64,000 nucleotides of DNA. Source: Candidatus Aenigmatarchaeota archaeon. Lineage in GTDB: Archaea; Aenigmatarchaeota; Aenigmatarchaeia; CG10238-14. Made by a program: the position numbers and the translations under genes. Within the stretch, counting starts at the first letter, position 1, and every line of letters begins with the position of its first letter. The DNA lies in NCBI GenBank assembly GCA_018304545.1, contig JAGVVZ010000002.1:16999-80998 (forward strand). Reading direction: 5' to 3'. The notes beneath the pieces were generated by a model that worked only from the letters and a program-made list of their open reading frames with translations, was not told where the DNA came from and made no database searches. Below are positions 1-36,173 of the stretch, piece after piece.

Positions 1-827
1 ATATCAATAGGAAGTTGATGGAACACACCAGTACTGTTGTAAATTAAATATATTATTCCTAGAAAGATGAATATTGAACCGCTTATTATATTGGTAAGTC
101 CTGTATTAACTTCCTTACCAAGTAACCTAAATTTTATTGATTTTTGAAATATCGGCTTTTCGAATATGTGTATTTTATCAAAAAAGAATGAAAATATGAT
201 CAAAGGTATAGATATGCCTAAAGAGTAGACAAACATAAGCAAGACGGCAATCAGAATAGGCAGTGTAGAAGCTAGTGTAAGTATGCTAAATACTATTGGT
301 CCTGCGCATCCAGCATATCCAAATGAAAATAAAGCACCAAATATAATATTTTCAACGAAACTATTTCCAAGTTTATTTTTTATGTTAAACATATTAAATG
401 AAATGCCGAGTATAGACGCTAATCCAAATGCAAGAATCAACAATCCCGATAATAAAACCATTTTAGGTTGGTGTATTAACAACCAATTACCAATTACAGA
501 AGCACCAAGACCTAAAAAAGCATTGAATGAAGCAAATCCAATAAAGAATGCTGTAGTCATCAAAACTAGTTTCGTCTTGTTTTTGAATGAAAATGCGAAA
601 TAAGCAGGTAATATTCCAATACTACATGGTGCAAAGAATAATAATATGCCGCCTATAAAAGCAGATAGCAAAGTTAATTTTTGAACTTCAGATAAACTAG
701 TTGCTTTCACTATTTGCAAATTTTCTGGTATGTTTTCCTCATGAGGATAATCTGCAGAATGTCCTAAAACTATAACTGGAAATAATAAAACAAATATTAA
801 TAACAAAGTGTGCTTCAAGTTCAACAT
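1..827 (-). CDS. CcdA/DsbD-like thiol:disulfide transmembrane electron transporter (5' complete, 3' end beyond window start)
   Basis: Minus-strand ATG at 827-825 (MLNLKHTLLLIFVLLFPVIV...). Multi-pass hydrophobic protein with two membrane Cys motifs (..FAPCSIG.. and ..GYAGCAGP..) typical of CcdA. No stop before position 1. The plus-strand ORF 283..603 is its antisense shadow. Confidence 0.5.
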   Translation of the reverse strand, partial: MLNLKHTLLLIFVLLFPVIVLGHSADYPHEENIPENLQIVKATSLSEVQKLTLLSAFIGGILLFFAPCSIGILPAYFAFSFKNKTKLVLMTTAFFIGFASFNAFLGLGASVIGNWLLIHQPKMVLLSGLLILAFGLASILGISFNMFNIKNKLGNSFVENIIFGALFSFGYAGCAGPIVFSILTLASTLPILIAVLLMFVYSLGISIPLIIFSFFFDKIHIFEKPIFQKSIKFRLLGKEVNTGLTNIISGSIFIFLGIIYLIYNSTGVFHQLPID

Positions 828-868
828 AATTTATCCTTTACAAATCTTGAAAAAGTGATTATTTAAAT

Positions 869-2053
869 TTACTGTTGTTCTTCTGATGGTCTAACTATCT
901 CATTAGAAGAAAGGTTTTTGTATATACCCATAACTTCAGTTCTTCTAAAAACAAAATATCCGTCTGATTCCTTAGTTCCAACTGAATCCCAAACTTGAAT
1001 AAAATTTGGATATTCTTTAGATTCAGATGATAGAATTATTGTTGGTATCTTTGTTATATTATATTTGTTAACTATTCTTTTACCATCACTTGACGATACA
1101 TCATAAGAAAATTCTTTAGTAACAACGACACCAAAATTAGGTATTATTGATTTATGTAATGATACATTATAACATTCAGTACATGATGAATCTGATAGAA
1201 GTGTTAGTGTTGCCAAACCAACAATTTTCTTTGTGTTCAAATCTAGATAAGGCGCCGTATTAGTATGTAAAGCGTAATTGCCGTCGACTTCTGTAGCATT
1301 TAATCTAGGCAAAACAGAAGCTATATTTTCATATTCTTTTATTTCTGCAGAAATAACCAAAGCTGGTATTCTTCTTATGTTATATTTACTTCTAAATTCT
1401 TTTCCTTCCTCAGAATCATATTCAACAGATTTAGCTGATGTTATCTCAACATTAGATGCTCTAAAAGCAGATAAAACATCATTCATTGATGAACATTCTT
1501 TACATTCAGAATCTATAATACTGATCACTGAAACTAGACCGGCAACCTTCTTTTTATTTAGATCAAAGTATGGGGGTTCTATATTTGTAATTAAAACTGT
1601 TTCGTTATTATCAGCATAAGTACCCTTTTCCAACCAATATTGTTGTAATTCGCTCGATTTATCTAACTCGCCTGTTATTATCATGGTAGGTATTTTCTGT
1701 ATACTATATTTTATTATGAAATTTCTTCCCTCTTCTGAATTGAATTCTACTGTTTTTTCATTTAGTATTTTAACATTGTTTTGTTTTATTTCAGCTACTA
1801 TATCATTTATTTCAAAACATTGTTTGCAAGAACTATCCACGATTTTTAACAATTTTAACTCTGCAGATCTTACTACTTCATTTTGTTTAGAAATTTCTGA
1901 TTTTATTTTATTTGTCATATTAAAAAGGATAAACATATTGAATGTGTTGACTATAACAAGAACAAGAAACAAAATTAAAAATAAAGAATTCTGACTAGCT
2001 AAAGTTTTTTTCTTTTTCTTTGCTGTTTTCTGTGATTTATTTTTTTCGTCCAT
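869..2053 (-). CDS. Membrane-anchored protein with three tandem thioredoxin-fold repeats, each with a CxxC motif
   Basis: N-terminal TM helix, then three ~110-aa repeats with CKQC / CKEC / CTEC and a conserved ..SEEG..F..KY.I.(K/R)IP.. core. Directly downstream of the CcdA-like gene on the same strand. Confidence 0.6.
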   Translation of the reverse strand: MDEKNKSQKTAKKKKKTLASQNSLFLILFLVLVIVNTFNMFILFNMTNKIKSEISKQNEVVRSAELKLLKIVDSSCKQCFEINDIVAEIKQNNVKILNEKTVEFNSEEGRNFIIKYSIQKIPTMIITGELDKSSELQQYWLEKGTYADNNETVLITNIEPPYFDLNKKKVAGLVSVISIIDSECKECSSMNDVLSAFRASNVEITSAKSVEYDSEEGKEFRSKYNIRRIPALVISAEIKEYENIASVLPRLNATEVDGNYALHTNTAPYLDLNTKKIVGLATLTLLSDSSCTECYNVSLHKSIIPNFGVVVTKEFSYDVSSSDGKRIVNKYNITKIPTIILSSESKEYPNFIQVWDSVGTKESDGYFVFRRTEVMGIYKNLSSNEIVRPSEEQQ

Positions 2054-2075
2054 TAAAAATCAACTAAATAAAAAA

Positions 2076-2291
2076 TCAGCAGCCACCAACCATCGACGGT
2101 AAGTTTTCTAAATTAGATGGTAATTGAGCTGATCCACTGTTTCCAGCAGGAGATGAACTCACTGATTTACTGCCACCAACAGAAACGCCACTAACCAAAG
2201 TCGATTGAAGACTAAATAGTTGTATAGCTTGCAAAACTGAAACTAGTACCATTGCTCCAATCAAAATAGTTAATAACAAATTCGTATTCAT
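2076..2291 (-). CDS. Small membrane protein (one TM helix plus G/S-rich tail), hypothetical
   Basis: 71-aa ORF, hydrophobic N-terminus, same strand and tightly spaced within the thiol-disulfide operon. Confidence 0.3.
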   Translation of the reverse strand: MNTNLLLTILIGAMVLVSVLQAIQLFSLQSTLVSGVSVGGSKSVSSSPAGNSGSAQLPSNLENLPSMVGGC

Positions 2292-2332
2292 TCATTAACC
2301 TCCTTTTAATTCTATTAATAAAAACATAAATA

Positions 2333-3031
2333 TTAAGCTCCCACAATATTTTGTGATTCTACTGATATTCTTTGAATTGTTGGCCCGGGGTAGAAAAGTG
2401 TTTTCCATCTAGTCATCTCACCAAATATTTCGGCATCCGAATATTCTGGGTGATACTTAATAAACCATTTTGCTATGCCTCTCCAACTTGCAGCATGTGC
2501 ACAACCGCATCTAGTTATAATCGTTGGATTTGATGGGGAACCACAACAATAATCACAAGTAAAAGAATTAACTATTTTATTCCATCTTTGTTGTTCTTCA
2601 TCAGTTAATTTTATAGATCTTTCATGATTACTCCAAGTTTGTAGAGATTCTAAAGGATCATCAAAACTCACCTTAGCTTCTTCGCCATAGAAAGGCGTTC
2701 CTGTTGGTATTAGATTATTTATCATATCTTGAACCGAATCTCCTGTAGACGGTTTAAGTTGTAATTCACTTATGGACGGCATAGATTTTATCCTAGTTCT
2801 ATAACCAGATATAACTGGTTTTTCTCCTTCAGATAACAGAACGGGACCAACAGCCGTTTTTCCATCTATTTTTATATTCAAGTTTTTAAGATCTACTGTC
2901 TGGACATTTCTAGGTATTAAAGTTGAATATACTTTCAATGTAATAATTTGATTAACTAAAACTAAAGCCACAATCAGAATCAAAAAATGATAAAAATATT
3001 TGTGTGAAAGTATAGCATCTTGTTTTGGCAT
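2333..3031 (-). CDS. Membrane-anchored Cys-rich protein, hypothetical (CDYCCG...CGCAHAASW motif)
   Basis: 232 aa, N-terminal TM helix, C-terminal cluster of 6 Cys. First gene of the minus-strand operon, divergent from the blaI-like gene. Confidence 0.4.
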   Translation of the reverse strand: MPKQDAILSHKYFYHFLILIVALVLVNQIITLKVYSTLIPRNVQTVDLKNLNIKIDGKTAVGPVLLSEGEKPVISGYRTRIKSMPSISELQLKPSTGDSVQDMINNLIPTGTPFYGEEAKVSFDDPLESLQTWSNHERSIKLTDEEQQRWNKIVNSFTCDYCCGSPSNPTIITRCGCAHAASWRGIAKWFIKYHPEYSDAEIFGEMTRWKTLFYPGPTIQRISVESQNIVGA

Positions 3032-3050
3032 TTGATCACTTTATTAGCTT

Positions 3051-3135
3051 TACAATAGTTGTAAATATTACCTGTAAAATATTTAAAGTTTCTTAAAGTA
3101 TTACTTTACATATTTTGTAAATATTTACATATTTA
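3051..3135. promoter_or_regulatory. Divergent intergenic region with BlaI/MecI-type TACA/TGTA dyad operators
   Basis: TACAatagtTGTA at 3051-3063. TACAtatttTGTA at 3107-3120, overlapping the perfect 14-bp palindrome TGTAAATATTTACA at 3117-3130. Lies immediately upstream of the BlaI-family repressor gene (3150). Confidence 0.35.
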
Positions 3136-3149
3136 AATGTATTAATAAA

Positions 3150-3542
3150 GTGAGGTTAATGGTCAATATAAACAAAATAAGGTTAAATAAAATAGGACTT
3201 GAACTCTTTCTTAGTCCTCTAGAATCGGATGTCATTGGTATATTGTTCGGGAAAAAGGAAGCAAAAGTCAGAGAAATACATAACATACTAAAAAGAAAAA
3301 AGAAAGTTGCTTTGACAAGTGTTGCAGTAATATTAGATAGATTGTATAAAAAAGATCTAGTGAAAAGAAAGGTAGAAAATGGAAGAGGCGGCATACATTA
3401 CATATATTCGACGTCTGAGAGTAAAATAAATATAGAAAAATCCATAATCGAAAGTTCCATAAATAAACTAATAGATGTTTTCGGGTCTTCTGCCGTTAAT
3501 TATTTTGATGAAAGATTTTCTAAAAGAGGGGACAAAAAATGA
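3150..3542 (+). CDS. BlaI/MecI/CopY-family winged-helix transcriptional repressor
   Basis: 130 aa; ..LTSVAVILDRLYKKDLVKRKVENGRGGIHYIYSTS.. matches the BlaI family wHTH. TGA stop overlaps the next gene start (ATGA). Confidence 0.6.
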   Translation: MRLMVNINKIRLNKIGLELFLSPLESDVIGILFGKKEAKVREIHNILKRKKKVALTSVAVILDRLYKKDLVKRKVENGRGGIHYIYSTSESKINIEKSIIESSINKLIDVFGSSAVNYFDERFSKRGDKK

Positions 3543-4294
3543 TAGAGAAAATAGGCTGTTATATAGGACTTATTCTTGACCCACAAAAAATAATTTTATC
3601 TTTAATTTCATTATCAATATCTTTTTTTACATTATTACTCTTGAAAAAAACCGGCGTTTCAACTAAACTAAAAATATCGCTTATATACGCACATTTAACA
3701 TCTCTAGTATTTCCTTTCGTATTATTTGGAACGCATGTTGGATGCGGCATAGCATGTATGCCCTGCTACAATAATGTATTATCTCTAGTATCGTATGCGT
3801 TACCTACCACTCTATTTATTTCTACTATATCGAGTTTTTTTGTTGTACCATCTTTGTATATAATAACAAACAAGAAGAGAATTATCAAATCTGGTCATTT
3901 ATATAGATTTATAAAAAAATATTCAGAAAAAATGAAAATATCTGAACCAAAAATCTACGTTATAGATAAGGCTGAACCAATAGCATTCTCATTCAGAACA
4001 TTTAAATCCGCTATATTTTTATCCGTAGGTGTTTTAGATATACTTAAAGATAGAGAGATAGAATGCGTTGCTTTACATGAATTATCGCATCTAAAAGAAA
4101 AATCATCTATCACAAAAATTTCTTTGTCTATGTTAAAACTGTTTTCGCCTTTTTCTTTAATTTCTGGATTTAATATAGATTCTACAGACGAAGAAAAAAA
4201 AGCAGATAATTTTGTTCTAAAAGAGCAGAAAACAAAAAAATATCTGATATTAACTAAAAAAAGGTTTCAACAGTTCAAATGTTATAAAAAATAA
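3539..4294 (+). CDS. BlaR1-like M56-family membrane metalloprotease/sensor (HEXXH), truncated type without penicillin-binding domain
   Basis: Multi-TM protein with ALHELSHLK (HExxH) in the expected position. Translationally coupled to the BlaI-like repressor. Extra Cys cluster HVGCGIACMPC in TM2. Confidence 0.5.
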   Translation: MIEKIGCYIGLILDPQKIILSLISLSISFFTLLLLKKTGVSTKLKISLIYAHLTSLVFPFVLFGTHVGCGIACMPCYNNVLSLVSYALPTTLFISTISSFFVVPSLYIITNKKRIIKSGHLYRFIKKYSEKMKISEPKIYVIDKAEPIAFSFRTFKSAIFLSVGVLDILKDREIECVALHELSHLKEKSSITKISLSMLKLFSPFSLISGFNIDSTDEEKKADNFVLKEQKTKKYLILTKKRFQQFKCYKK

Positions 4295-4489
4295 CTATTT
4301 CTTTGCTAAATAAGCGTATACATGAGCCAATAATGACAGTACTACCATTAAAATTCCTAAATAAAACACATTATAACTCTCCACGTATTTGTAAATTAGC
4401 AGACCCAGACCTAAACCACCTATCACATGCGCAATGTTAGCAAAGTATACGTGCTTACTCCAATATTTTTGCATTTTTTCTAAACACAT
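4295..4489 (-). CDS. Small two-TM membrane protein, hypothetical
   Basis: 64-aa hydrophobic ORF; weak. Confidence 0.2.
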   Translation of the reverse strand: MCLEKMQKYWSKHVYFANIAHVIGGLGLGLLIYKYVESYNVFYLGILMVVLSLLAHVYAYLAKK

Positions 4490-4574: not shown

Positions 4575-4907
4575 ATGAAAATTATTATGCCGTGTGAAAC
4601 TGTAACGAGATATATTCTTCCAGCTTTAAGAGTGTCCATATCCAAGAAACTTTTCGAGAAATTCAAGTTTAACCAGTCCAATATAGCCAACATACTGGGG
4701 GTGACTCAACCTGTTATCAGTAAATACCTGTCTGAGAATTATGATGAAAAAATAAAGTTAATTCTAAAAAATGAAAGACTGGACAGAATTGCTCTTGAAA
4801 TAACAGAATCAATAATAAATAAAAATATAAATAATGAAGAAATTACTGGAATTCTACTGAAAACTTCATCGGAATTTGTTGATGGATATGAGTATCTGAT
4901 TGACTAG
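4575..4907 (+). CDS. Small HTH-containing putative transcriptional regulator
   Basis: 110 aa; ..QSNIANILGVTQPVISKYL.. helix-turn-helix signature. Confidence 0.35.
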   Translation: MKIIMPCETVTRYILPALRVSISKKLFEKFKFNQSNIANILGVTQPVISKYLSENYDEKIKLILKNERLDRIALEITESIINKNINNEEITGILLKTSSEFVDGYEYLID

Positions 4908-5119: not shown

Positions 5120-6355
5120 TTAATCAACATACATTAACAAGGTGTCAGGATCCTCTAATCTTCTTATTATAGAATTAACGAATTCGGCCACTTCTGCTCC
5201 ATCAACAACTCTGTGATCAAAGGAGAGCGAAAGTGGTAATATTTTTCTAACGACTATTTTTTTATTTTTAATAACTGGTTTTTCTTGGATTTTACCTATT
5301 CCTAATATAGCAACTTCTGGATAATTTATTATAGGTGTTCCAAAGATACCACCAACAGATCCGTAGTTAGTTATTGTAAATGTACCGCCTTTCAAATCTT
5401 CCATATCTATTCTCCTTGCTTTGGACTTTTCTGCTAAATCTTGTATTTCCTTTGCTAGTTCCATTATACTCTTATCATCAACTCTCTTTACTACAGGAAC
5501 CATTAAACCATCAGATGTTTGAACTGCTACTCCTATATTATAATATTTTTTGATTATAATTTCTTGATTCTCATCATCTAAACTGGAATTAAGATAAGGG
5601 TGTTCTTTCAAACCAGCTAAAACCGCTTTTATTATAAAGGGTAGAAAAGTTAAATGGATGCCATAATTTTCTGCTAATTTTTTTTCTTTCTCTCTTACTC
5701 TAACTAAATCTGTAATATCTACTTCATCAATGTGAGTAACGTGGGTTGCTGTAAATTTAGATTTAATCATATTTTCTGAAATTGTTTTTCTCATACCTTT
5801 TAATGGTATTTTTAAAATTTCACCATATTTTTCAAAGGCCAATCTTGGCAAAGTTGTTTTTTCTGTTTCTTTTTGTTTTGATACAATACTAGACCTATTA
5901 GCATAATCTTTAACATCTTGATTTGTTATTCTACCATTGTAACCAGTACCTTTTACATTTAATAAATTAATCTCCAATTGCTTAGCTAAATTTTTTGTTG
6001 CAGGTGTCGCTAATATTGTAGGTTTTAGAACTACTTGTGGGTTTTCTAATTTTTCTTGTATTTTTTCTAACGATTTCATTTCTTGTTTTTCTATTTGAAC
6101 TTCTGATAATTTTTCTCCTTCCTCACCCAAAACAAGCAGATTCTCGCCTACTTCGATAGTATCACCTGGTTTCCAATTTAATTTTAGTACAACACCTGCT
6201 TTAGGAGAGGGTATCTCAACTACAGCTTTATCAGTTTCGATTTCGGCAATAGTTTGATCTATTTTTATTTTATCTCCTTCTTTTACTAACCATTTTATTA
6301 GTTCGCCTTCATGAATTCCTTCACCAACGTCTGGAAATTTAAACTCAAACGGCAT
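5120..6355 (-). CDS. 2-oxoacid dehydrogenase E2 (dihydrolipoamide acyltransferase)
   Basis: Lipoyl domain motif IAEIETDKAVVEIPSP, peripheral subunit-binding domain, catalytic DHRVVDG motif. Confidence 0.85.
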   Translation of the reverse strand: MPFEFKFPDVGEGIHEGELIKWLVKEGDKIKIDQTIAEIETDKAVVEIPSPKAGVVLKLNWKPGDTIEVGENLLVLGEEGEKLSEVQIEKQEMKSLEKIQEKLENPQVVLKPTILATPATKNLAKQLEINLLNVKGTGYNGRITNQDVKDYANRSSIVSKQKETEKTTLPRLAFEKYGEILKIPLKGMRKTISENMIKSKFTATHVTHIDEVDITDLVRVREKEKKLAENYGIHLTFLPFIIKAVLAGLKEHPYLNSSLDDENQEIIIKKYYNIGVAVQTSDGLMVPVVKRVDDKSIMELAKEIQDLAEKSKARRIDMEDLKGGTFTITNYGSVGGIFGTPIINYPEVAILGIGKIQEKPVIKNKKIVVRKILPLSLSFDHRVVDGAEVAEFVNSIIRRLEDPDTLLMYVD

Positions 6356-6364
6356 TAAATCATC

Positions 6365-7345
6365 CTAAAATTTCATTAAATTTTTTGTTTCAGTAACTAT
6401 TCTTCTTACGTCTGGAATATAATTATTTTCTAACTTAGCTAAAGGGACCACTGTGTCAAAACCAGTAATTCTAATAACAGGCGCTTCTAAATTCAGCAAT
6501 GCTTTTTCGTTTATAATTGCCGATATTTCTGCACCTAATCCACATGTTAAAGGTGCTTCATGAACAACAACACATTTGCCTGTTTTCTTAACAGATTTTA
6601 AAATAGTGTCTTTATCTAATGGTGATAATGTTCTTAAATTTATTACTTCGGAATTAATATTATTGCCTTTCAAAATTTCATCTGCCTCTAAAACTGACGA
6701 CATCATAGCTCCATATGAAATTAATGTTATATCTGTGCCTTCTTTGACTACATTCGCTTCGCCTATTGGTATGGTATAAATTTCATCAGGAACTTCTTGT
6801 TTGAATGCTCTATATAATCTTAAAGGTTCAAAAAAAATTACTGGATCAGGGTCTCTAATTGATGATATTAAAAGTCCTTTAGCATCATAAGGATTTGAAG
6901 GCATAACTACCTTTAATCCAGGTGTATGAATAAAAAGAGCTTCTGTACTTTCTTCATGATGTTCCAGTCCCCTGCTGACCCAACTACAAGGTGTTCTTAC
7001 AACTAAAGGACATGTGAATCTTCCTCTGGATCTATTTCTTATTCTTGAAGCATGAGATATTAATTGCTCAAATGCTGAATAAATAAAACCACTAAATTGA
7101 ATTTCAACTACAGGTTTCAAGCCATAAACCGCCATTCCTATTGATGTACCAACTATACCAGATTCACTTAAAGGTGTATCTATTACCCTTTCTTCGCCAA
7201 ATTTCTGCAATAGACCTTCTGTTACTCTGAATACACCTCCATCAACACCAACATCTTCACCTAACACTAAAACATTCTGATCTCTTTCCATCTCTTGAGC
7301 CAAAGCCTGGTTAATTGATTGAACCATATTCATTTGTGACATCAA
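6365..7345 (-). CDS. Pyruvate/2-oxoacid dehydrogenase E1 beta subunit
   Basis: 326-aa transketolase-like C-terminal/pyrimidine-binding domains. Gene order E1alpha-E1beta-E2. Confidence 0.85.
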   Translation of the reverse strand: MMSQMNMVQSINQALAQEMERDQNVLVLGEDVGVDGGVFRVTEGLLQKFGEERVIDTPLSESGIVGTSIGMAVYGLKPVVEIQFSGFIYSAFEQLISHASRIRNRSRGRFTCPLVVRTPCSWVSRGLEHHEESTEALFIHTPGLKVVMPSNPYDAKGLLISSIRDPDPVIFFEPLRLYRAFKQEVPDEIYTIPIGEANVVKEGTDITLISYGAMMSSVLEADEILKGNNINSEVINLRTLSPLDKDTILKSVKKTGKCVVVHEAPLTCGLGAEISAIINEKALLNLEAPVIRITGFDTVVPLAKLENNYIPDVRRIVTETKNLMKF

Positions 7346-7354
7346 AACACCTTT

Positions 7355-8371
7355 TTAAGGAAATCTTATCTCTTTTTCTTTTTCGTCTAAATATTTCAAT
7401 AAATATTCTCTTTGCATTTTGATACTATTTGTTTGATTAGCGAATACATAATCAAAAAATTCATCTGGTTTTGGTTTTGATAATGACTCCATGGCAACAA
7501 TGGCCTTCTCCATATTTTCTTCAGCCTCTTTAAATGTTTTATCGCCAAATTCTTTAGTCCAAAGTTTTTTGTTTTCCATAAATCTCCTTAATCTTTCAAT
7601 CGGATCTTTTTGAGACCAAAGTTGAACTTCCTCTTCTGTTCTGTATATGTTATAATCATCAGCTGTAGTATGATGACCCAATCTATAAGTTACACACTCT
7701 ACTAAACTGGGACCATTATTTTGCTTGGATTTTTCAATTGCGTCTTTTGTCGCTTTGATAACAGCAAAAATATCATTACCGTCAACCTGTATACCATTGA
7801 ATCCGTATGCTATGGCCTTTTGCGCTATAGTTTCGGATTTTGTTTGCTTTGATCTGGGAACAGAAATTGCATATTGATTATTCTCAACTACAAATATAAC
7901 AGGTAAATTAAATACACCAGCAAAATTCATAGCTTCATGAAAATCACCTGTACTTGTAGCCGCCTCTCCCATATATGTTAATACTACAACGTCTTTTTTT
8001 TGTTTCTTCGCGGCCCAGGCTAATCCGACTGCGTGTAAAGGTTGAGTACCAACTGGAATTGCCAGAGTAAAGATGTTAAGATTTTCTGGTATTTTTTGGC
8101 CTCTTTCATCCCCACTCCAATATTGTAAAAGTTTCTCCAGCGGCATTCCCCTGGTTATATATGCGCCCATATTTCTATAAGTTGGGAATATCCAATCATT
8201 TTTAGATAAAACAAATGACGTGCCTATATCACTTGCTTCCTGTCCTTTAATTGGAGCATAAGTACCTATTCTACCTTGTCTCTGCAATTTCCAAGCTTTT
8301 TCATCAAATACTCTTGTTTGAACCATCAACCTATATAGTTCTTTAATCTCTTCGTCAGAAAGCTTGGGCAT
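7355..8371 (-). CDS. Pyruvate/2-oxoacid dehydrogenase E1 alpha subunit (TPP-binding)
   Basis: 338 aa, TPP-binding region (..GDFHEAMNFAGVF...VVENNQYAIS..). Confidence 0.85.
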   Translation of the reverse strand: MPKLSDEEIKELYRLMVQTRVFDEKAWKLQRQGRIGTYAPIKGQEASDIGTSFVLSKNDWIFPTYRNMGAYITRGMPLEKLLQYWSGDERGQKIPENLNIFTLAIPVGTQPLHAVGLAWAAKKQKKDVVVLTYMGEAATSTGDFHEAMNFAGVFNLPVIFVVENNQYAISVPRSKQTKSETIAQKAIAYGFNGIQVDGNDIFAVIKATKDAIEKSKQNNGPSLVECVTYRLGHHTTADDYNIYRTEEEVQLWSQKDPIERLRRFMENKKLWTKEFGDKTFKEAEENMEKAIVAMESLSKPKPDEFFDYVFANQTNSIKMQREYLLKYLDEKEKEIRFP

Positions 8372-8841: not shown

Positions 8842-10377
8842 CTATTTTCTGAAAAATCTAGCAAAAAAATTAATTATATTTTTTATTGCTTTTGATAACA
8901 GGCTCTGTTTTGTTTCAGAAGTTATAACTGTTTTAGAACTGTCGTTTAATATATGAGTAGAAATGTTTTCTTCTGTTGTCGATATATTTTCTTCTAATCG
9001 TAAATCATCAGTAAAATTTTTTTCAGTTTTAATTAATTTTGTAGAATTAAAATTGGGTATAAAAATTTCTAATTTGTTTACATCATTCAAACATGTTTCA
9101 AATTTACTTCGATCATTTGGATAACACGGTCTTAAATCATAATTCATTGCTTTAAGCAATATATAGTTAAATTCTTCTGAATTATTAACAACGTGATCTA
9201 CATCCAAAATGTATTTATATGCCAATCTTAAACCTTCAATTCCTCTCTTTTTAACAAAATCACGAATAATAAGTTCGCTAAATGCGTAACCAAAGTCTCT
9301 ATTATTGTCCTGATTCAGATTCCAAGTTTCTATAAAATTTTCATTATTTTTGTAGTAATTCCACAATTTCTCTCTATCGCCTTTTGATTTCAAAATAAAT
9401 TTATCGCCTTTGGTAGAATATATTATGCCACCACCAAAAATTTCTGGTTCTATATTGCCCAGTTGTTTATCTGCTAAATGTTCAACAAATTTACCCATAC
9501 CCTCATCAAACCATGAAATATTAGCTTCTTGCCAAGAAAAGACTTTAGAATTATAACCATGAATTGTCTCATGTATGATAATACTAGCATTATTTTCTGT
9601 TTTCATAGTTGATTCTTTAATAAGTATTAATCCTCCTGTTAAATGCGTGCCTGAACTCCAGGACTTTGCTATTTCGTTATATTTTTCATCTGATAATATC
9701 TTCACTGGAAAACGTTTGAATGGTAAATCTATGCCTGTAACAGATTGTATAATAGGATATAATTCATCTGCAGCTGATAAACTAAAATTATCAAAACCAA
9801 TATAATTGTTATAAAATTTTCCTTCAGAACTAAAAAACATTCTTAAATTTATTGGACCATAACCAATAAGCTCGGCATAACTATTTTCGTATTTTTCACT
9901 AAAGTTAAAACTAGCATGACCTGAAATTAAGCCATTTGTTTTAAAATTAACTATGGTAATTTCATTGCTTATACCGGGGAGCGACAAATCTACACTATAT
10001 ACAGGCTTAAATTTATCATCGACGACATTTTCAATCAAAAAATTAATAAAAACTTTTTTTGTGTTGGATCTGTCAGTATTAGTCAAAAAACGCAAATTAT
10101 TGCCATCTATAGAATAATCTTCTATTTCTCCTTTATCATCTTTTATATCCAATATTTTAGAATTATCTGGCAAGATCCAAAACACATCCCATCTAGTAAT
10201 CTTCTCTTCACTTGTCAATATTATTGTTGTATTGATTATAGAATCTCTACCAGAGAGAGAAATGTTATATACAGTAGTAGCGCTAACTAACCCAATAAAA
10301 AAATTAAAAATTAGTAGAGTTAGAATGTAGAATTTTGTCATATTTATCTCGAATTTTTTATTCCGATTTTCGGACAA
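8842..10377 (-). CDS. Secreted/membrane-anchored zinc metallopeptidase (HExxH), hypothetical
   Basis: 511 aa, N-terminal signal/TM, IIHETIHGY zinc-binding motif, C-terminal short repeat LEENISTTEENIST and hydrophobic tail. Confidence 0.4.
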   Translation of the reverse strand: MSENRNKKFEINMTKFYILTLLIFNFFIGLVSATTVYNISLSGRDSIINTTIILTSEEKITRWDVFWILPDNSKILDIKDDKGEIEDYSIDGNNLRFLTNTDRSNTKKVFINFLIENVVDDKFKPVYSVDLSLPGISNEITIVNFKTNGLISGHASFNFSEKYENSYAELIGYGPINLRMFFSSEGKFYNNYIGFDNFSLSAADELYPIIQSVTGIDLPFKRFPVKILSDEKYNEIAKSWSSGTHLTGGLILIKESTMKTENNASIIIHETIHGYNSKVFSWQEANISWFDEGMGKFVEHLADKQLGNIEPEIFGGGIIYSTKGDKFILKSKGDREKLWNYYKNNENFIETWNLNQDNNRDFGYAFSELIIRDFVKKRGIEGLRLAYKYILDVDHVVNNSEEFNYILLKAMNYDLRPCYPNDRSKFETCLNDVNKLEIFIPNFNSTKLIKTEKNFTDDLRLEENISTTEENISTHILNDSSKTVITSETKQSLLSKAIKNIINFFARFFRK

Positions 10378-28499: not shown

Positions 28500-29641
28500 T
28501 CTTCACCAATTTTAGCTACTAATTCAAACATTCCTGTACCTACTGGTATTTGTTTATTTATCATAACATTATCAAATATACCTTCAAATGTGTCGATTTC
28601 TCCTCTAACTGATGCCTTTACTAAATGTTTTACGGTTTCTTCAAAACCCGCACGAGTTAAAACTGACGTGTGAGTTCCAGCAATTCCATATCTACCAACA
28701 GCTCTAATTTCACCTGTTAATGTCATTATATCAGCAACAAGCATAATGTGTCTTTGATCTATATCAAGACCTTGTTGTTCTAGTGTATCTCTAATTTCTC
28801 TCATCAAAGCTGTTCTTGCGGCCTCAATGCCAAGAAATTTAGCTATTTCATGAATATTATTCGTATAACATTTTCTGATATCAAATTCTTCCATTAGCAA
28901 TATTTTTTCAAAATTCGAGCCTAATGTTTTTATTATCCAATCTTTCCCTTCTTTTACAAGAACCGAATTTTTAATACCCTGTAAACCTGAAACATGAAGT
29001 GCCAAGATTTTCTTTTTCAATTTCTCTAATTCTTTTATTGTTATTTCTCCTTCTTTTGGTTCTATATCTATTCTTTCTCCATTTAATTTTATTGTGTAAT
29101 TTTTGAATGTTTTTTCCAATTTTTCCATCGTTTCTTTTTTTTCTGATTGTTTTATCTTCTTCAACTCAATTTTTATTTTTTTATTTGTCAAATCAACAGA
29201 AATCGTATTGGAAAAATTTCTCATTTTCTTTTCTCTTAATTGCTTTGCGATTTCTTCACCGTCTTCCTTTGTATTAAATTTAGATTTTAGATACAAAGTC
29301 ATCATGGGTGTAGTTGGTTCCTTTCTAGCATCAAAAATTTCAATTAATCTCGGTAAACCCAAAGTAATCTGTAAACCTGCAGATCCAGCAAAGTGATATG
29401 TTCTCATTGTCATTTGAGTCGCTGGTTCAGAAATAGACTGAGCGGAAATTATACCTAAAGCTTCGCCCGGCTCAAAACTGCTTTTCATATATTCTTTTTT
29501 AACAGAATTAATTAATTTTTCTTTTTGTTGTTCGTTAAGTTTTCTATCTTTACTAACCTTGTCTATCTCTTCCCATATCAACTGAGGCAAATCAACATTA
29601 TCTAAATAACTCATTTGCAATTCTTTCGACATTGATTCCAC
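28496..29641 (-). CDS. rpoA2: DNA-directed RNA polymerase subunit A''
   Basis: 381 aa, C-terminal portion of the largest subunit (..FEPGEALGIISAQSISEPATQMTMRTYHFAG..). Start overlaps the end of the upstream ORF; the true start may be one of the downstream ATGs. Confidence 0.9.
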   Translation of the reverse strand: MESMSKELQMSYLDNVDLPQLIWEEIDKVSKDRKLNEQQKEKLINSVKKEYMKSSFEPGEALGIISAQSISEPATQMTMRTYHFAGSAGLQITLGLPRLIEIFDARKEPTTPMMTLYLKSKFNTKEDGEEIAKQLREKKMRNFSNTISVDLTNKKIKIELKKIKQSEKKETMEKLEKTFKNYTIKLNGERIDIEPKEGEITIKELEKLKKKILALHVSGLQGIKNSVLVKEGKDWIIKTLGSNFEKILLMEEFDIRKCYTNNIHEIAKFLGIEAARTALMREIRDTLEQQGLDIDQRHIMLVADIMTLTGEIRAVGRYGIAGTHTSVLTRAGFEETVKHLVKASVRGEIDTFEGIFDNVMINKQIPVGTGMFELVAKIGEE

Positions 29642-32600
29642 CTCTTTGCATTTTTGATGGGTCTAACCCATCTTCACCTGGTATGAATTGAATTATTTTC
29701 TTTGTACAATCTCTAACAGTACCATCATATTCAACCTTTAAATCTTTTAGTGCACCTATGAGCCTTCTTTCCAAATAACCACTATGTCTAGTTTTCAATG
29801 ACTTATCCATTAAACCTTCTCTACTATTCATTGCATCAAAGAAAAATTCAAATGGTGATAGACCGTTTTTATATCCGTGCCTTACGAACCCTTTCGATTC
29901 TAAGCTTAAATCACCTTTTCTGAAATGAGAAAATGTTCTTTTATAATATCCTATTTTAATTCTTTCACCTTTAACAGTTTCTTGACCAATACAAGCAGCA
30001 CACTGAACTAAATTAATAATACTGCCTTTTGATCCACTTTTAGCCATTATTATAGTAGAATTTTCAGGAACTGATTTTCCGACAACTTCACTAATTTCGT
30101 TCAACAATTCAGCCGTTCTTTTCTTGATTGAAATTTCTAAGCTCTCTCTCGGCGTTCTTCCTATAACATCTAGTATTTTATTCTTTTTAAAATCTTGGAT
30201 TGTTTTATCAACCTCTTTTTGAACATCTTCAATCATTTGATTAATTTTCTCTCTTATTTTAGGATTTAAATCATGATCCGCGATAGATACGGTAAACCCA
30301 TATTTCATTAAAACCTCGAGAGATAATCTAGTTATATCGAATAAAAATTTCCTTGTAACTTCATATCCGTATCTTCTTTCTAATTCGTCTAATATTTTAC
30401 CCTTAAACGCACCTATCCCATTTTCATCAATAATACCAGACAAAAGTTTACCATTTTTTATAACAACATCCATATCCGCAACTTTGTATTCTAAATTGAA
30501 GTTTTTCGGCAAAAATAAACTGAAAATTTCTTTCCCAGTTAATTCTTTTTTATCTGGTATTTCAACATCTAAATCATATGCTCTAATTAAATTAACAGCA
30601 TCTTCCCTGTTCAACACGAACTTGTTTGTTAGGATAAAAATACCTGTTATGTGATCGTTTATTGCGCCTATAATAGGACCACTAAATCTTGGACTTCTAA
30701 TTTGTGTTATTGAATTAGTTAATAATTTAGTTTCTGTTTGTGCTTCTTTTGTTTGCGGCACATGCAAATTCATTTCATCTCCATCAAAATCAGCATTATA
30801 TGACGGAGCTACGACCAAATTAAATCTAAACGTATTATAGGGCATCACTCTCATTTTATGACCCATCATACTCATTCTATGCAATGATGGTTGTCTATTA
30901 AATACTGACCAATCTCCATCTTCGATTTGCTTTTCCACAATAAAACCTGATGCCAATTCATCAGCTATATCTTTCTTATTTAACTCTGTCACCTTTTTCC
31001 TTCTACCATCAGGCCTATTAACATAATTTATTGTGGGCCACTCCGGACATCTCGTTATCAATTCTTTTATTTTTTTGATGTTCCTTTCATTTACTACAAC
31101 AGGCAACGTTAATTCCTCTGCCACAAATCTCGGTATGCCAACTTCATTAATATCAAGCATCGGATCAGGACTTATGACGGTTCTTGCTGAATAATTAACC
31201 CTTTTACCAATTAAATTGCTTCTGAATCTTCCTTCCTTTGTTTTTAATCTCTGTGCCAAAGTTTTTAATATTCTACCAGATCTGTGTCTCGCTGGAGGAA
31301 CTCCAGAAATCTCATTATTCATGTATGTTGCTATATGATATTGTAATAACTCCCAAAGATCTTGAATAATAAAATCTGGTGCGCCTAAATCACTGTTTTC
31401 TCTTAATCTTTTGTTTATTCTAACTATATCGACCAATTTGTGTGTTAGATCATCTTCAGACCTTTCACCTGTTTCTAAAGTAATAGAAGATCTAACAGTT
31501 ACAGGAGGCACAGGCAGCAATGATATTATCAAATATTCGGGCCTTGTTCCCCTTATACCTAAATATAATAAATCCTCGTTTGGTATTCTTTCTAACCATT
31601 CTCTCGTTTCAACAGGGGTTAATAATGTGCTATCCTCTTGGAAGCTTGTTGGTTTGACAAATTTAATTTTCTTTTGTTTTTCTTTACAATGGGGACACGT
31701 GCTTTTGACTAAATGTTTAAGTTTTTTAACTGATATTCTTCCTGTTGCTTTGTTTTTCTCCGTATCTTCCTTTGTTATAAGTATTTTTCCACATTTTCTA
31801 CATGTAGATTTTAATATATTGTAAATAAGTTTCGAATAATTTACATGAACAATAGGCTTAGTCAATTCCAAATAACCGAAGTGGCCCTTGCAATCACCGA
31901 CAGTTCCACCGCAAGATCTACATCTTAATCCTGGATCAATAACACCTAATCTGGGATCCATAAGTCCTCCTTCTACAGGATATCCTTCCTGATCATATAA
32001 TTCTGTTTTGCTAATTTTACATTGAGAAATTTTCTTCACTAAATCTGGGTTTAAAACGCTAAATAAAATTTTATCTATTGTGTTCATTTCTTCATTCACA
32101 GTTATTTTAGGATATATTAGCATACTTCTTAATTCGTCCAAAAGAAGTTTGAAGGCATAAGACATTTCGACATCGATGATTTTGGTTCCTCCGCAAACAG
32201 AGCAATACTTTTTGTTTTTTATTCTATCATAAATTGCGTCCATACCACAGTCTTTGCATATCGGTATATAGGTTTTATCGGAATCAAATCTCTCTTTTAA
32301 TAATAACGATGCACCATGCGCTATTAAACAATCTTTTTCCATTTCGCCTAACCTAAGACCGCCCATTTTTGATTTTCCTTCTGTAGGTTGTTTTGTTAGC
32401 AAAGTAACAGGACCTTTCGATCTTGCGTAAATTTTATTTGAAACTAGGTGATCGAGTTTCTGATAATAAATATTCCCGATATAGATTTTGTTGTCAAACT
32501 GTTTTCCTGTTCTTCCGTCAAACATCACTTCTGTGCCATCATTATTGAAGTTATACGATTCCAATTTTTTCCTTAGTTCAGATTCAGGAATTGAATGGAA

Positions 32601-33881
32601 TGCGGGACTGCTAATTCTTTCTCCTTGTAAAGAAGCGACTTTCCCACTTAAAATTTCCAAAAGTTGTCCTATTGTCATTCTAGATGGTATACCATGAGGA
32701 TTAAAAATAATATCAGGAACAACGCCATCTTCAGTAAACGGTAAATCTTCTTGCGGAACAGTTAAGCCTATTACACCTTTTTGACCATGTCTACTGGCAA
32801 ATTTATCTCCTAGTTCAGGTTTTTTCAAATCTCTAATTAATGACTTAACTAATTTATTTCCTTCTCCGCTTTCTGTTATGAATACTCTATCTACTATACC
32901 TTCTTCTCCGTGTCTTATTTTGATAGAGGTTTCTCGAATATTTTCAAGTCCAGTAATAAATTGATCTAATCCTCCCAGAAATCTTAAAGGCGAAACTTTA
33001 GAAATAATTATATCTTCAGATTTCAAAGAAGTTTCTGGATTGGCGATGCCGTCTTCAGATAAGTGTTTATATGAATCCTCGCCTATATATCCCCTAACTC
33101 CTGGTTCAGGTATACCTATCACGTCTTCTTGACCGCCAAGATATCGTTTTTCTTCTGCTTCGTAGGCTCTAAACAAATATGACCAGAACATTCCCCTTTC
33201 TATAGACGATTTATTAATTACTATCGAATCCTCCATATTATATCCCATAAATGGCATAACAGCTAAAGTAACATTTTGACCACCGGGATGATTTTCATCA
33301 CTGACAATTTCATTCATATGAGTTTTAACCAGAGGAACCTGTGGATAAACAAGAATATTTGATTTAGTATCAGTTCTAATCGGAAAATTCAAAGAGTATA
33401 AACCTATGGATTGCCCTATCATTTTTCCTCCAAAATTTACTCTATCACCTCGATCGAACTCAGCAAAAGGAACTAAAGACGTGGCTAAACCCAAAATTAT
33501 TGTAGGATCCAATTCTAGATGAGTATGTTCTGGTGTCAAATCTTCCGGTCTTAAAGCAACATATGCGTTTTCTTCTTCTTCTGTATCAAGATATTCAATT
33601 ACACCACTGTTTATCAAATCTGACCATTTCATTTTTCCTTTTTGAACATTTTCCACGTGTTCTTTAGTTAATTTGGGCTTGCCGTCTTCGACTACTATGA
33701 CAGGCCTTCTTGCACGACCAGCATCAGTAAGAACAGTTACAACATCTAAATGATCCAAATAAACAACATTTACTTGATTCGATAATTGACCTTTTCTTCT
33801 CATTTCTCTTATTGAATTCACTAATTTTTCAGGTGATTTCAAGTTGCCGATGTATCTCCCATCTACAAATAAATCTGTCAT
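29598..33881 (-). CDS. rpoB1-rpoA1: Single 1427-aa ORF encoding RNA polymerase subunit B' (residues ~1-597) fused in frame to subunit A' (from Met ~599)
   Basis: B' C-terminus ..CSVCGGTKIIDVEMSYAFKLLLDELRSMLIYPKITVNEE runs directly into the A' N-terminus MNTIDKILFSVLNPDLVKK...LMDPRLGVIDPGLRCRSCGG. The Met codon is at 32087-32085 (minus strand). There is no stop codon between the two. Confidence 0.8.
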   Translation of the reverse strand: MTDLFVDGRYIGNLKSPEKLVNSIREMRRKGQLSNQVNVVYLDHLDVVTVLTDAGRARRPVIVVEDGKPKLTKEHVENVQKGKMKWSDLINSGVIEYLDTEEEENAYVALRPEDLTPEHTHLELDPTIILGLATSLVPFAEFDRGDRVNFGGKMIGQSIGLYSLNFPIRTDTKSNILVYPQVPLVKTHMNEIVSDENHPGGQNVTLAVMPFMGYNMEDSIVINKSSIERGMFWSYLFRAYEAEEKRYLGGQEDVIGIPEPGVRGYIGEDSYKHLSEDGIANPETSLKSEDIIISKVSPLRFLGGLDQFITGLENIRETSIKIRHGEEGIVDRVFITESGEGNKLVKSLIRDLKKPELGDKFASRHGQKGVIGLTVPQEDLPFTEDGVVPDIIFNPHGIPSRMTIGQLLEILSGKVASLQGERISSPAFHSIPESELRKKLESYNFNNDGTEVMFDGRTGKQFDNKIYIGNIYYQKLDHLVSNKIYARSKGPVTLLTKQPTEGKSKMGGLRLGEMEKDCLIAHGASLLLKERFDSDKTYIPICKDCGMDAIYDRIKNKKYCSVCGGTKIIDVEMSYAFKLLLDELRSMLIYPKITVNEEMNTIDKILFSVLNPDLVKKISQCKISKTELYDQEGYPVEGGLMDPRLGVIDPGLRCRSCGGTVGDCKGHFGYLELTKPIVHVNYSKLIYNILKSTCRKCGKILITKEDTEKNKATGRISVKKLKHLVKSTCPHCKEKQKKIKFVKPTSFQEDSTLLTPVETREWLERIPNEDLLYLGIRGTRPEYLIISLLPVPPVTVRSSITLETGERSEDDLTHKLVDIVRINKRLRENSDLGAPDFIIQDLWELLQYHIATYMNNEISGVPPARHRSGRILKTLAQRLKTKEGRFRSNLIGKRVNYSARTVISPDPMLDINEVGIPRFVAEELTLPVVVNERNIKKIKELITRCPEWPTINYVNRPDGRRKKVTELNKKDIADELASGFIVEKQIEDGDWSVFNRQPSLHRMSMMGHKMRVMPYNTFRFNLVVAPSYNADFDGDEMNLHVPQTKEAQTETKLLTNSITQIRSPRFSGPIIGAINDHITGIFILTNKFVLNREDAVNLIRAYDLDVEIPDKKELTGKEIFSLFLPKNFNLEYKVADMDVVIKNGKLLSGIIDENGIGAFKGKILDELERRYGYEVTRKFLFDITRLSLEVLMKYGFTVSIADHDLNPKIREKINQMIEDVQKEVDKTIQDFKKNKILDVIGRTPRESLEISIKKRTAELLNEISEVVGKSVPENSTIIMAKSGSKGSIINLVQCAACIGQETVKGERIKIGYYKRTFSHFRKGDLSLESKGFVRHGYKNGLSPFEFFFDAMNSREGLMDKSLKTRHSGYLERRLIGALKDLKVEYDGTVRDCTKKIIQFIPGEDGLDPSKMQRGGINVERIANELFR

Positions 33882-35820: not shown

Positions 35821-35938
35821 GAGTTGGCAACGTCCTGAACTTCCCACCCAAAGGCAGTACAACTCAGATCACCGAAAAACTTAACTTCCGTGTTCGAAAT
35901 GGGAACGGGTGTTTCCTTTTCGTTTTGGTCGCCAACTC
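35821..35938 (-). rRNA. rrf: 5S ribosomal RNA (standalone, not linked to 16S/23S in this window)
   Basis: Minus-strand sequence GAGTTGGCGACC...CACCCGTTCCCATTTCGAACACGGAAGTTAAG...GTTGCCAACTC. It carries the universally conserved 5S loop-C/helix-III block and complementary termini (helix I). Confidence 0.85.
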
Positions 35939-36057: not shown

Positions 36058-36173
36058 TCCCCCCGGCCGGAGTTGAACCAGCAACATCACGGTATCTATT
36101 GAGCCCATGCTGGTGACAAACACATAATGTGCTCGTCTACAGCCGTGCGCTCTGCCAGTTGAGCTACAGGGGG
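36058..36173 (-). tRNA. tRNA-Tyr(GTA) with a ~43-nt canonical (37/38) intron
   Basis: CCCCCTG-TA-GCTC-AACTGGCA-GAGC-G-CACGG-CTGTAG[intron acgagcac...caatagat]A-CCGTG-ATGTT-GCTGG-TTCAACT-CCGGC-CGGGGGG-A; acceptor has one G-U pair. Confidence 0.8.

Follow-up and report, generated by a model that had tools for sequence, protein, structure and literature searches.

In Synechocystis sp. PCC 6803 the BlaI-like repressor PetR binds a dyad with an N5 spacer and is degraded in a copper-dependent manner, while for its partner PetP, a protease of the M48/M56 type that has no sensor domain and whose gene overlaps petR, copper sensing via the loop between transmembrane helices 2 and 3 (TM2-TM3) has been proposed. 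Judged by this published description, PetR/PetP is the closest regulatory precedent for the archaeal gene module presented here. In both cases the stop codon of the repressor gene overlaps the start codon of the protease gene, the protease gives matches to Pfam M48 as well as M56 and has no C-terminal sensor domain, an N5 spacer separates the halves of the operator or putative operator dyad and, comparing the layouts by description, the sole candidate sensor appears to be a short TM2-TM3 loop that faces outward and carries soft-metal ligands. The two systems differ in that the archaeal loop holds three cysteines and the PetP loop two conserved methionines, in the dyad itself (TACA-N5-TGTA here, GAC-N5-GTC for PetR), and in the target, which is an envelope thiol operon in an archaeal host instead of plastocyanin/cytochrome c6.

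The BlaI/BlaR1 and MecI/MecR1 systems of Staphylococcus and Bacillus likewise combine a Penicillinase_R repressor and TACA/TGTA dyads with a co-encoded M56 protease (HExxH), but the spacer in the bla/mec operators is shorter than the N5 of the archaeal dyads, and the archaeal system contains neither an extracellular penicillin-binding domain nor a resistance gene. With CopY/TcrY it has the repressor family, an operator resembling the "cop box" (TACA..TGTA) and a possible link to copper in common, whereas the archaeal repressor is free of cysteine, which would leave sensing to the protease. For the thiol proteins the nearest parallels are DsbD-DsbC/G and ScsABCD of Salmonella, where a DsbD-type transporter feeds envelope proteins of the thioredoxin fold; ScsABCD also includes a small membrane protein with a Cys motif and defends against copper-induced thiol damage, and can in these respects be likened to the archaeal module. 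No homology to either is apparent beyond CcdA and the thioredoxin folds, and both the regulation and the Cys5-His/tail protein pair described below differ. Compared with the pathway CcdA/DsbD > CcmG/ResA > CcmH the archaeal module shows no heme machinery, its thioredoxin is triplicated, three invariant ligands are added in its terminal protein, which is not matched by the CcmH profile, and the partner of that protein has a Cys tail.

The stretch of DNA analysed (the window, 64,000 nucleotides) is part of a metagenome contig from Candidatus Aenigmarchaeota (DPANN), a tiny groundwater archaeon. All six genes of the original prediction were found at the positions it had given, and profile searches placed their proteins in the CcdA, thioredoxin, BlaI and M56/M48 families. 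Four of the genes are located on the minus strand, separated by gaps of 22-41 nt, and run divergently from the two regulatory genes on the plus strand. A literature search revealed no paper on this gene arrangement, in agreement with the suggestion that it had not been described in archaea.

The first plus-strand gene (positions 3159-3542) encodes a winged-helix repressor of the BlaI/MecI/CopY family; its open reading frame opens at a GTG at position 3150, but 127 aa are obtained when counting from the ATG, as in the gene call on the parent contig. Residues 21-110 match Pfam Penicillinase_R well above the cut-off (4.7e-11, 43.5 bits, cut-off 22.6), bearing out the proposed BlaI/CopY membership, and the NCBIfam families CopY_TcrY (8e-7) and BlaI are matched as well, each below its own cut-off. 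Repressors of this family are inactivated by a site-specific cut in the C-terminal dimerisation domain; homologues of the present one have a conserved C-terminal motif, FG..AV.YFNERF. The repressor sequence does not contain a single cysteine, and metal binding through the CopY site CxCxxxxCxC is therefore impossible.

Between the repressor and the first gene of the thiol operon lies a divergent control region (3032-3158) holding two perfect TTACA-N5-TGTAA dyads; by expectation the 64-kb window would have 0.21, and it contains no others. O1, TTACAATAGTTGTAA (3050-3064), is centred 26 bp upstream of the ATG of the Cys-rich gene and O2, TTACATATTTTGTAA (3106-3120), 46 bp upstream of the repressor ATG and 56 bp from O1. 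Conservation was surveyed in 81 DPANN loci, the counts given here and below being raw and uncorrected for phylogeny or contig truncation. In these loci the density of TACA-N5/6-TGTA is 2.75 per kb in the sequence upstream of BlaI and 0.078 per kb overall (~35-fold enrichment), relatives show dyad pairs at the equivalent position, and all dyad pairs spaced 40-90 nt are found either at the junction between BlaI and the thiol operon or at the edge of the module. The dyads had been put forward as candidate operators, and this enrichment in relatives supports viewing them as operator-like, putative binding sites of the BlaI-like repressor.

The second plus-strand gene (3539-4294) shares the four nucleotides ATGA with the repressor gene, its start overlapping the repressor stop, and encodes a membrane zinc protease of 251 aa with the motif HELSH. 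It matches Pfam Peptidase_M56 (38.5 bits, cut-off 31) and Peptidase_M48 (31.4 bits, cut-off 20.3) alike, so the two families cannot be told apart here. Three transmembrane helices are predicted, with an outward TM2-TM3 loop (C69-x3-C73-x2-C76) and a cytoplasmic catalytic domain (HELSH...EE..AD). Six residues (C69, C76, H180, E181, H184 and E219) do not vary among the homologues, and C73 is conserved in at least 90% of them. A structure model of moderate confidence (AF2, pLDDT 75.5) gave Foldseek matches to ZMPSTE24, HtpX and BlaR1 (8exq and 8exr, E about 0.01). The original prediction described the protein as a truncated BlaR1-type M56 protease; the M56 family agrees with the profile match, but the shortness is that of a natural sensor-less class, exemplified by PetP, and not a truncation. 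Similarly, the predicted cysteine cluster HVGCGIACMPC exists (residues 66-76) but is predicted not to be intramembrane, since both the positive-inside rule and the AF2 model locate it in the outward-facing TM2-TM3 loop and the adjoining outer end of TM2.

The membership of repressor and protease in these families could suggest that beta-lactams are sensed and resisted as in the classical BlaR1/BlaI systems. This is contradicted already by the protease, which stops at residue 251, covers only positions 112-254 of the M56 profile and in the profile searches shows no penicillin-binding (class D beta-lactamase-like) sensor domain; the operon furthermore lacks a beta-lactamase or PBP and the host is an archaeon, leaving this explanation with a negligible probability.

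The BlaI-M56 pairing is retained in 34-35 of the loci surveyed, and of the 59 loci whose flank extends for 2 kb or more, 31 have it upstream of the core genes. When the search was instead started from M56 homologues, all four contigs found carried the module (4/4), and the neighbourhood is conserved in many DPANN relatives, as the original prediction required, from whichever side it is approached. Clades of M56 retain a pair or triple of cysteines in the TM2-TM3 loop or at the N-terminus, some having Met-rich sensor loops such as CMMPMMNC. Loci without BlaI/M56 usually harbour a winged-helix membrane regulator with two transmembrane helices and an outward loop of the type C-x4-6-C. This regulator was found in 29 loci, BlaI in 35 and both in four, so that one or the other is present in 60/81.

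The core order, Cys-rich protein > tail protein > triple thioredoxin, is kept in 72-77 of the 81 loci, and its first two members, both undescribed, are the conserved heart of the module. The Cys-rich protein (2333-3031, minus strand, 232 aa) is a single-pass membrane protein with a putatively outward Cys5-His domain, FTCDYCCGSP...RCGCAHA. It had no Pfam or NCBIfam match in the profile searches and, as judged from its sequence, is the first member of a Cys5-His family that is free of annotation and whose fold resembles CcmH only weakly. The PCYCGC domain (PF13798) matched neither this protein nor 60 family members; a true PCYCGC protein adjoins BlaI/M56 in one other locus (L094). The small protein (2076-2291, minus strand, 71 aa) consists of an N-terminal transmembrane helix, a low-complexity linker and the C-terminal sequence LPSMVGGC-COOH, which hardly varies across 79 homologous ORFs. 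Of 89 Cys-rich homologues, 15 end in the same tail as a C-terminal fusion, as do distant relatives, and when 1.07 Mb of loci was scanned it was confined to these two kinds of protein.

The resemblance to CcmH brings to mind the thio-reduction branch of cytochrome c maturation, in which CcdA, a CcmG-like thioredoxin and a CcmH-like protein would keep the CxxCH cysteines of apocytochromes reduced. CcmH/NrfF proteins are three-helix bundles whose LRCxxC motif lies in the loop following helix 1. The three-part logic is the same, and hhalign aligns the CxxC of the Cys-rich protein and its preceding helix with E. coli CcmH, albeit weakly (E 0.02, probability 2%). Against this, Pfam CcmH matches none of 60 family members, Foldseek was negative, and CcmH offers no equivalent of the tail or of the additional invariant residues (three Cys and one His). 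Moreover no heme-handling-like family was seen among the neighbour families conserved in at least 4 loci, ten of which were profile-searched, and DPANN archaea are generally not known to have cytochromes c. A role in cytochrome c maturation is consequently regarded as extremely unlikely. The tail might instead be a signal for sorting, lipidation or processing, with the Cys-rich protein as the enzyme recognising it, as could be expected from an almost invariant eight-residue motif in a small protein encoded beside a conserved partner. The motif is however situated at the very C-terminus with no transmembrane helix following it, is in the loci scanned limited to the small protein and the Cys-rich family without any varied cargo, and is often fused to the putative enzyme itself, which makes a signal function very improbable.

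The last two genes of the operon fit a thiol-disulfide pathway. The triple thioredoxin (869-2053, minus strand, 394 aa) matches Pfam Thioredoxin_3 (1.7e-11) and Thioredoxin (1.8e-9) and would be anchored in the membrane, its N-terminus having 8 K/R ahead of a transmembrane helix. It is a real triple, as had been proposed, each domain containing a CxxC (CKQC, CKEC and CTEC) followed by the cis-Pro motif IP[TA]; pairwise identity between the repeats is 32-40% (z 11-20) and all three CxxC motifs are kept in 68 of 73 homologues. The gene downstream (1-827, minus strand) is cut by the left edge of the window, which holds the N-terminal 275 of 333 aa, and the full-length protein was read from the parent contig (L001, 11227-12228). 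Its match to Pfam DsbD_TM is marginal (1.2e-6; 28.5 bits for the truncated and 27.6 for the full-length protein, cut-off 27.1), and both cysteines in the transmembrane helices (PC... and C.GP) are conserved in 19 homologues, which together sustain its assignment as a membrane electron transporter of the CcdA/DsbD type.

That electrons would flow in the reducing direction is suggested by the occurrence of CcdA together with CxxC/cis-Pro thioredoxin domains, by the anti-correlation between CcdA and an N-terminal CPxCQ membrane domain on long forms of the Cys-rich protein (odds ratio 0.2, p 0.003), and by neighbouring genes, thioredoxin-reductase-like in some loci and DsbA-like in nine, in one of these (L098) directly inside the operon. 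On the other hand CcdA was found in only 26 of the 81 loci, and the DsbA-like oxidases adjoining the module in some loci could rather indicate oxidative folding. Disulfides would then be made or shuffled in surface proteins by a triple thioredoxin acting as a PDI/DsbC-like isomerase, with the Cys5-His protein and the tail as a DsbB/Erv-like re-oxidant in organisms lacking quinones. A multi-thioredoxin architecture is reminiscent of PDI and a mobile C-terminal Cys tail of the shuttle arm in Erv2, and in bacteria Cys5-His domains occur fused to FKBP prolyl-isomerases. The only known role of CcdA is nevertheless the import of reducing power, the module shows no obvious electron acceptor or site for a cofactor, no flavin or quinone family was detected, and proteolytic regulation of the stress type fits a housekeeping folding pathway poorly. 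Oxidative folding is for these reasons considered unlikely.

A link to copper is suggested by the genes that surround the module elsewhere. In 30 of 81 loci there are Met-rich secreted proteins or an HMA/YHS P-type ATPase, mostly encoded within the module and on the same strand, and in one locus (L097) the module, a Met-rich protein and an HMA ATPase form one string of genes. The module could thus be dedicated to handling copper or another thiophilic metal, with Cu(I) bound in a thiolate cluster by the Cys5-His domain and the Met/Cys tail, to be sequestered or handed over. The thioredoxins and CcdA would do no more than keep the ligands reduced, and the protease would be a direct sensor of copper, the role proposed for PetP. 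Besides the copper-dependent precedent of PetP/PetR, the metallothionein-like spacing CxxCC...CxCxH with the MxxxC tail, the Met-rich loops of some M56 clades and a weak MerT-like match of the N-terminal domain in long Cys-rich forms (E 0.031) all agree with this possibility. Conversely, genes for a Met-rich protein or a metal ATPase are absent from the locus in the window, neither Met nor His accompanies the Cys pair in most regulator loops, the repressor is devoid of the CopY metal site and the Cys-rich protein matches no metal-binding family. Dedicated copper handling is accordingly a possible but not the preferred explanation.

We somewhat favour, by a cautious judgement, a module functioning as a proteolytically switched, stress-inducible relay that reduces thiols in the envelope and is probably linked to copper, the redox relay being what we infer from the families of its proteins. 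At rest the repressor would sit on both dyads and silence both divergent promoters. Oxidation of the Cys-rich TM2-TM3 loop, predicted to be the only outward-facing element of the protease, or binding of a thiol-seeking metal to it may then trigger the cytoplasmic zinc-protease domain to cut the repressor, as BlaR1 does with BlaI and PetP with PetR. Once derepressed, the operon would set up a reducing relay at the outside of the membrane, where CcdA could pass cytoplasmic electrons to the anchored triple thioredoxin, which in turn would keep both the membrane-anchored Cys5-His protein and the flexible, tethered tail ending in Met-Val-Gly-Gly-Cys reduced. These two are the putative working end, their task most likely being capture of Cu(I) or else repair of surface cysteines damaged by copper or oxidants, and re-reduction of the sensor loop would switch the system off.

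A wider and clearly more tentative proposal is that the LPSMVGGC arm and the Cys5-His domain form an unrecognised envelope thiol system of DPANN and some other archaea and bacteria. Here the arm might stand in for small-molecule thiols and ferry electrons or Cu(I) among the domain, the triple thioredoxin and surface targets, and interchangeable transmembrane regulators might read an outward Cys pair, one of them being the first archaeal proteolytic switch of the BlaI/BlaR type.

DPANN archaea are tiny, largely uncultured and attached to other cells, and the chemistry of their surface is central yet almost unknown. The module is one of few multi-gene arrangements common to Woese-, Pace-, Aenigm-, Iain-, Micr- and Nanoarchaeota and assigns a context to two protein families free of annotation, while proteolytic signalling of the BlaI/BlaR type would extend to Archaea with a sensing loop open to mutation. 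It probably guards the cell surface against copper or oxidant damage, and offers a route to asking how surface cysteines are kept working under copper or oxygen stress in cells that have no quinones and probably no small thiols.

The six genes of the original prediction were all located where it had placed them. On the minus strand a Cys-rich protein (2333–3031, 232 aa) is followed by a small membrane protein (2076–2291, 71 aa), a protein with three thioredoxin (Trx) domains (869–2053, 394 aa) and a CcdA-like protein (827–1) that leaves the window at its left edge and is 333 aa long on the parent contig, with gaps of 41, 22 and 41 nt between the four genes. On the plus strand lie a BlaI-family repressor (3159–3542, from ATG) and an M48/M56 protease (3539–4294, 251 aa), the ATG of the protease overlapping the TGA of the repressor. 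Pfam profile searches agree with the proposed CcdA, Trx, BlaI and M56 families, with matches to DsbD_TM (28.5 bits, cut-off 27.1) for the CcdA-like protein, Thioredoxin_3 (E 1.7e-11) and Thioredoxin (E 1.8e-9) for the triple Trx, Penicillinase_R (43.5 bits, cut-off 22.6) for the repressor and both Peptidase_M56 (38.5 bits, cut-off 31) and Peptidase_M48 (31.4 bits, cut-off 20.3) for the protease; NCBIfam agrees at the family level only. The tandem Trx repeats, also foreseen, are 32–40% identical in pairwise comparison (z 11–20 against shuffles), each with a CxxC and a cis-Pro motif, and are, judged from their sequences, a genuine triplication. A 64-aa ORF (4295–4489) and a 110-aa HTH protein (4575–4907) were rejected as parts of the module, their recurrence being limited to two or three of the closest relatives, and a 106-aa ORF (283–603, plus strand) antisense to the CcdA gene was taken as spurious.

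Scanning with the Cys-rich family, one genome per species, gave 80 loci spanning Woese-, Pace-, Aenigm-, Iain-, Micr- and Nanoarchaeota, which were mapped by phmmer and by HMMs made from the window's own proteins. The order Cys-rich protein, small protein, triple Trx is retained in 72–77 of 81 loci, and CcdA was detected in 26 of 81. Of the 59 loci in which 2 kb or more could be read upstream, 31 have a divergent BlaI-M56 pair there, in 20 of these at a distance of 300 nt or less. When the search was begun from the protease, all four longer contigs had the triple Trx, a small protein with the tail and a Cys-rich relative beside BlaI/M56; for several distant homologues the contig ended too soon for any context to be seen. 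The arrangement had been proposed as not described in archaea, and in the literature searched we found no account of the module and nothing relevant on MVGGC, the Cys motifs, CcdA or disulfide chemistry in DPANN, or archaeal BlaR1.

The Cys-rich protein has no match in Pfam or NCBIfam, and a Pfam search with 60 members of the family and 10 distant members revealed no common family. Homologues share the invariant residues C159, C162, C163, C175, C177 and H179, inside FTCDYCCGSP..PTIITRCGCAHA, and the distant members retain C[DE][YF]CC...C[GA]C[AS]H; an exhaustive profile search gave 274 clusters. In the AF2 model, which is confident (pLDDT 92), a single TM helix is accompanied by a helical domain and a small beta unit. 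Foldseek against PDB gave nothing under E 1 for this protein, and a sequence search of PDB with the family profile gave no match even at E 10. Using hhalign, a 19-column match to E. coli CcmH (sequence identical to 2kw0_A) was obtained with E 0.02, limited to the CxxC and the helix before it, so that the likeness to CcmH may serve as a lead and not as membership.

Roughly half of the homologues are extended at the N-terminus by a membrane domain of four helices, with CPxCQ and, on the cytoplasmic side, CxxC. In these long forms of ~400 aa (P0041, P0010 and others, from loci such as L015 and L061) CPxCQ lies within a helix of the four-TM domain, which shows a weak MerT-like match (E 0.031). The presence of the CPxCQ domain and of CcdA in a locus is anti-correlated (odds ratio 0.2, p 0.003, uncorrected for phylogeny), which suggests that the N-terminal domain can stand in for CcdA. 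The clusters of the profile search also include a fusion from a Desulfobacterales bacterium (L096, 7075–9416, and L090), where the Cys5-His domain, the outward domain of the Cys-rich protein, and an MVGGC tail are joined to an FKBP prolyl isomerase, preceded by a DUF1573 protein and an uncharacterised 205-aa protein, with no BlaI/M56 at the locus. In L094 (2496–3396) an HCPLC multi-TM protein and a protein with a true PCYCGC domain (PF13798) are situated immediately upstream of BlaI/M56; the PCYCGC motif, CYCGC..H, looks like a condensed Cys5-His motif.

The small protein ends in LPSMVGGC, a C-terminus that is nearly invariant among 79 small-protein ORFs. The same ending is found in 15 of the 89 Cys-rich homologues and in numerous distant relatives. 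A general sorting signal would be an unlikely function, since in the window and in the 1.07 Mb of loci the tail was confined to these two kinds of protein. The flexible linker and the conserved Met...Cys end of the sequence, sometimes tethered to the Cys5-His domain itself, fit a mobile arm that would work with this domain better than they fit a cargo signal.

The cysteine cluster of the protease, originally described as intramembrane, is present (C69, C73 and C76) but K/R counts place it in an outward loop. There are three hydrophobic helices, and the counts put the N-terminus and the 65–90 loop on the outside and the HELSH domain on the inside. In the clade of this protease C69, C76, H180, E181, H184 and E219 are invariant and C73 nearly so (at least 90%), and other M56 clades have either a Cys pair in the equivalent loop, which in some cases is rich in Met (CMMPMMNC), or a CxxxC in the N-terminus, on the outward side. 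The AF2 model (pLDDT 75.5) gave structural matches to ZMPSTE24, HtpX and BlaR1. Beta-lactam sensing was rejected, the protease having no sensor domain. The same layout is seen in PetR/PetP of Synechocystis, a BlaI-like repressor and a sensor-less M48/M56 protease whose genes overlap at the petP start and the petR stop; PetR, with the operator GAC-N5-GTC, is degraded when copper is present, and the proposed sensor of PetP is its TM2-TM3 loop, carrying two conserved Met in place of which the protease of the window has Cys. The BlaI-M56 pair adds a new archaeal example to the sensor-less BlaR/PetP kind.

Loci without BlaI/M56 mostly have a two-TM winged-helix protein with C-x4-6-C in an outward loop, matching HTH_24, MarR and, at 23.5 bits, Penicillinase_R. 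It was found in 29 loci and BlaI in 35, with both in only 4 and one or other in 60 of 81, so that the two nearly exclude each other; examples in which it replaces BlaI/M56 upstream of the module are L015 (8818–9327), L058 (3–662) and L074 (1–426). That this position is occupied by two unrelated regulator designs, both with a Cys pair turned outward, argues for a signal read via cysteine chemistry outside the cell.

The window (GC ~30%) forms the left part of a 160.9-kb metagenome contig (ENA ERZ4903137 k141_2261864), and NCBI lists the identical proteins under a Candidatus Aenigmarchaeota MAG. The archaeal origin is confirmed by tRNAs of intron-containing length, by split genes for RNA polymerase, by a DNA polymerase of family B and by a ThrRS editing domain of the archaeal type. 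Rfam identified tRNA genes of 90–119 nt at 36058–36173 (minus), 44496–44585 (plus), 57495–57613 (plus) and 57659–57757 (plus), all presumably containing introns, of which ARAGORN detected one only, and a 5S rRNA lies at 35822–35936 (minus). Downstream of a separate RpoB' gene (33878–35368, minus) a 1427-aa ORF (29598–33881, minus) comprises Rpb2 domains 4–7 (residues 5–594) followed by Rpb1 domains 1–5 (residues 600–1405) and looks like an RpoB''-RpoA' fusion. Close beside the module this DPANN genome has a complete operon for the E1-alpha, E1-beta and E2 components of a 2-oxoacid (pyruvate-type) dehydrogenase (5120–8371, minus). Two ORFs of ~510–520 aa (8842–10377 and 52387–53946, both minus) matched nothing in Pfam at E 1e-5.

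The candidate TACA/TGTA operators correspond to two perfect dyads in the 127 bp divergent region between the operons: O1 (3050–3064, TTACAATAGTTGTAA), centred 26 bp from the ATG of the Cys-rich gene, and O2 (3106–3120, TTACATATTTTGTAA), centred 46 bp from the repressor ATG. They are the only matches to TTACA-N5-TGTAA in 64 kb, where 0.21 are expected, and two matches were reached in 1 of 100 shuffles. Among relatives the density of TACA-N5/6-TGTA is 2.75 per kb upstream of BlaI compared to 0.078 per kb over the whole 1.07 Mb, and dyad pairs 40–90 nt apart are all located either at the BlaI junction or where a contig end truncates the edge of a module. A sigma-70 promoter scan was set aside because of the archaeal host, and both dyads are placed where an archaeal repressor would be expected to obstruct the TATA/initiation region.

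At other loci the neighbours found no more than 7 kb from the module are a SnoaL-like membrane protein (59 loci), two families of Met-rich secreted proteins (19 and 7), an HCPLC membrane protein (15), a DsbA-like protein (9), a thioredoxin-reductase-like protein (7) and an HMA/YHS P-type ATPase (6); in L098 a DsbA-like gene and CcdA stand immediately ahead of the module. The module is often followed by a gene for a C2H2 zinc finger, TM helix and His-rich ectodomain, relatives of which, frequently as multiple copies, are present in 61 of 81 loci. On the parent contig of the window (L001, 12239–12928, just past the left edge) it is the last gene of the operon, its product combining a cytoplasmic zinc finger and a TM helix with an outward domain in which HxH...HxH and two Cys are conserved.

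Met-rich or ATPase genes are found in 30 of 81 loci, mostly on the same strand and within the module. Insertions of Met-rich genes are seen in L070 (10660–11052), L023 (9700–10242) and L097 (10357–13773), the latter with the gene string tail protein, Cys-rich protein, Trx-CcdA fusion, Met-rich protein and HMA ATPase. A link to copper is supported by these neighbours, in about a third of the loci, and by the PetR/PetP precedent; the window's own locus has none of the copper genes. A module strictly dedicated to copper we regard as less likely than not. Families, gene order, dyads, conservation and invariant residues are what the analysis shows directly; beyond these, known CcdA-fed thioredoxin pathways together with the BlaI/BlaR and PetR/PetP switches point to a reducing relay that would be inducible and act at the membrane's outer face, which we consider slightly more likely than not; the two readings are separate and overlap, and their probabilities do not sum to one. 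Oxidative folding and cytochrome c maturation are ranked lower than both, as are the sorting signal and beta-lactam sensing. The regulated module consists of the familiar CcdA and Trx and two undescribed proteins, and in the reducing relay the Cys5-His protein and the Cys tail would be the terminal players.
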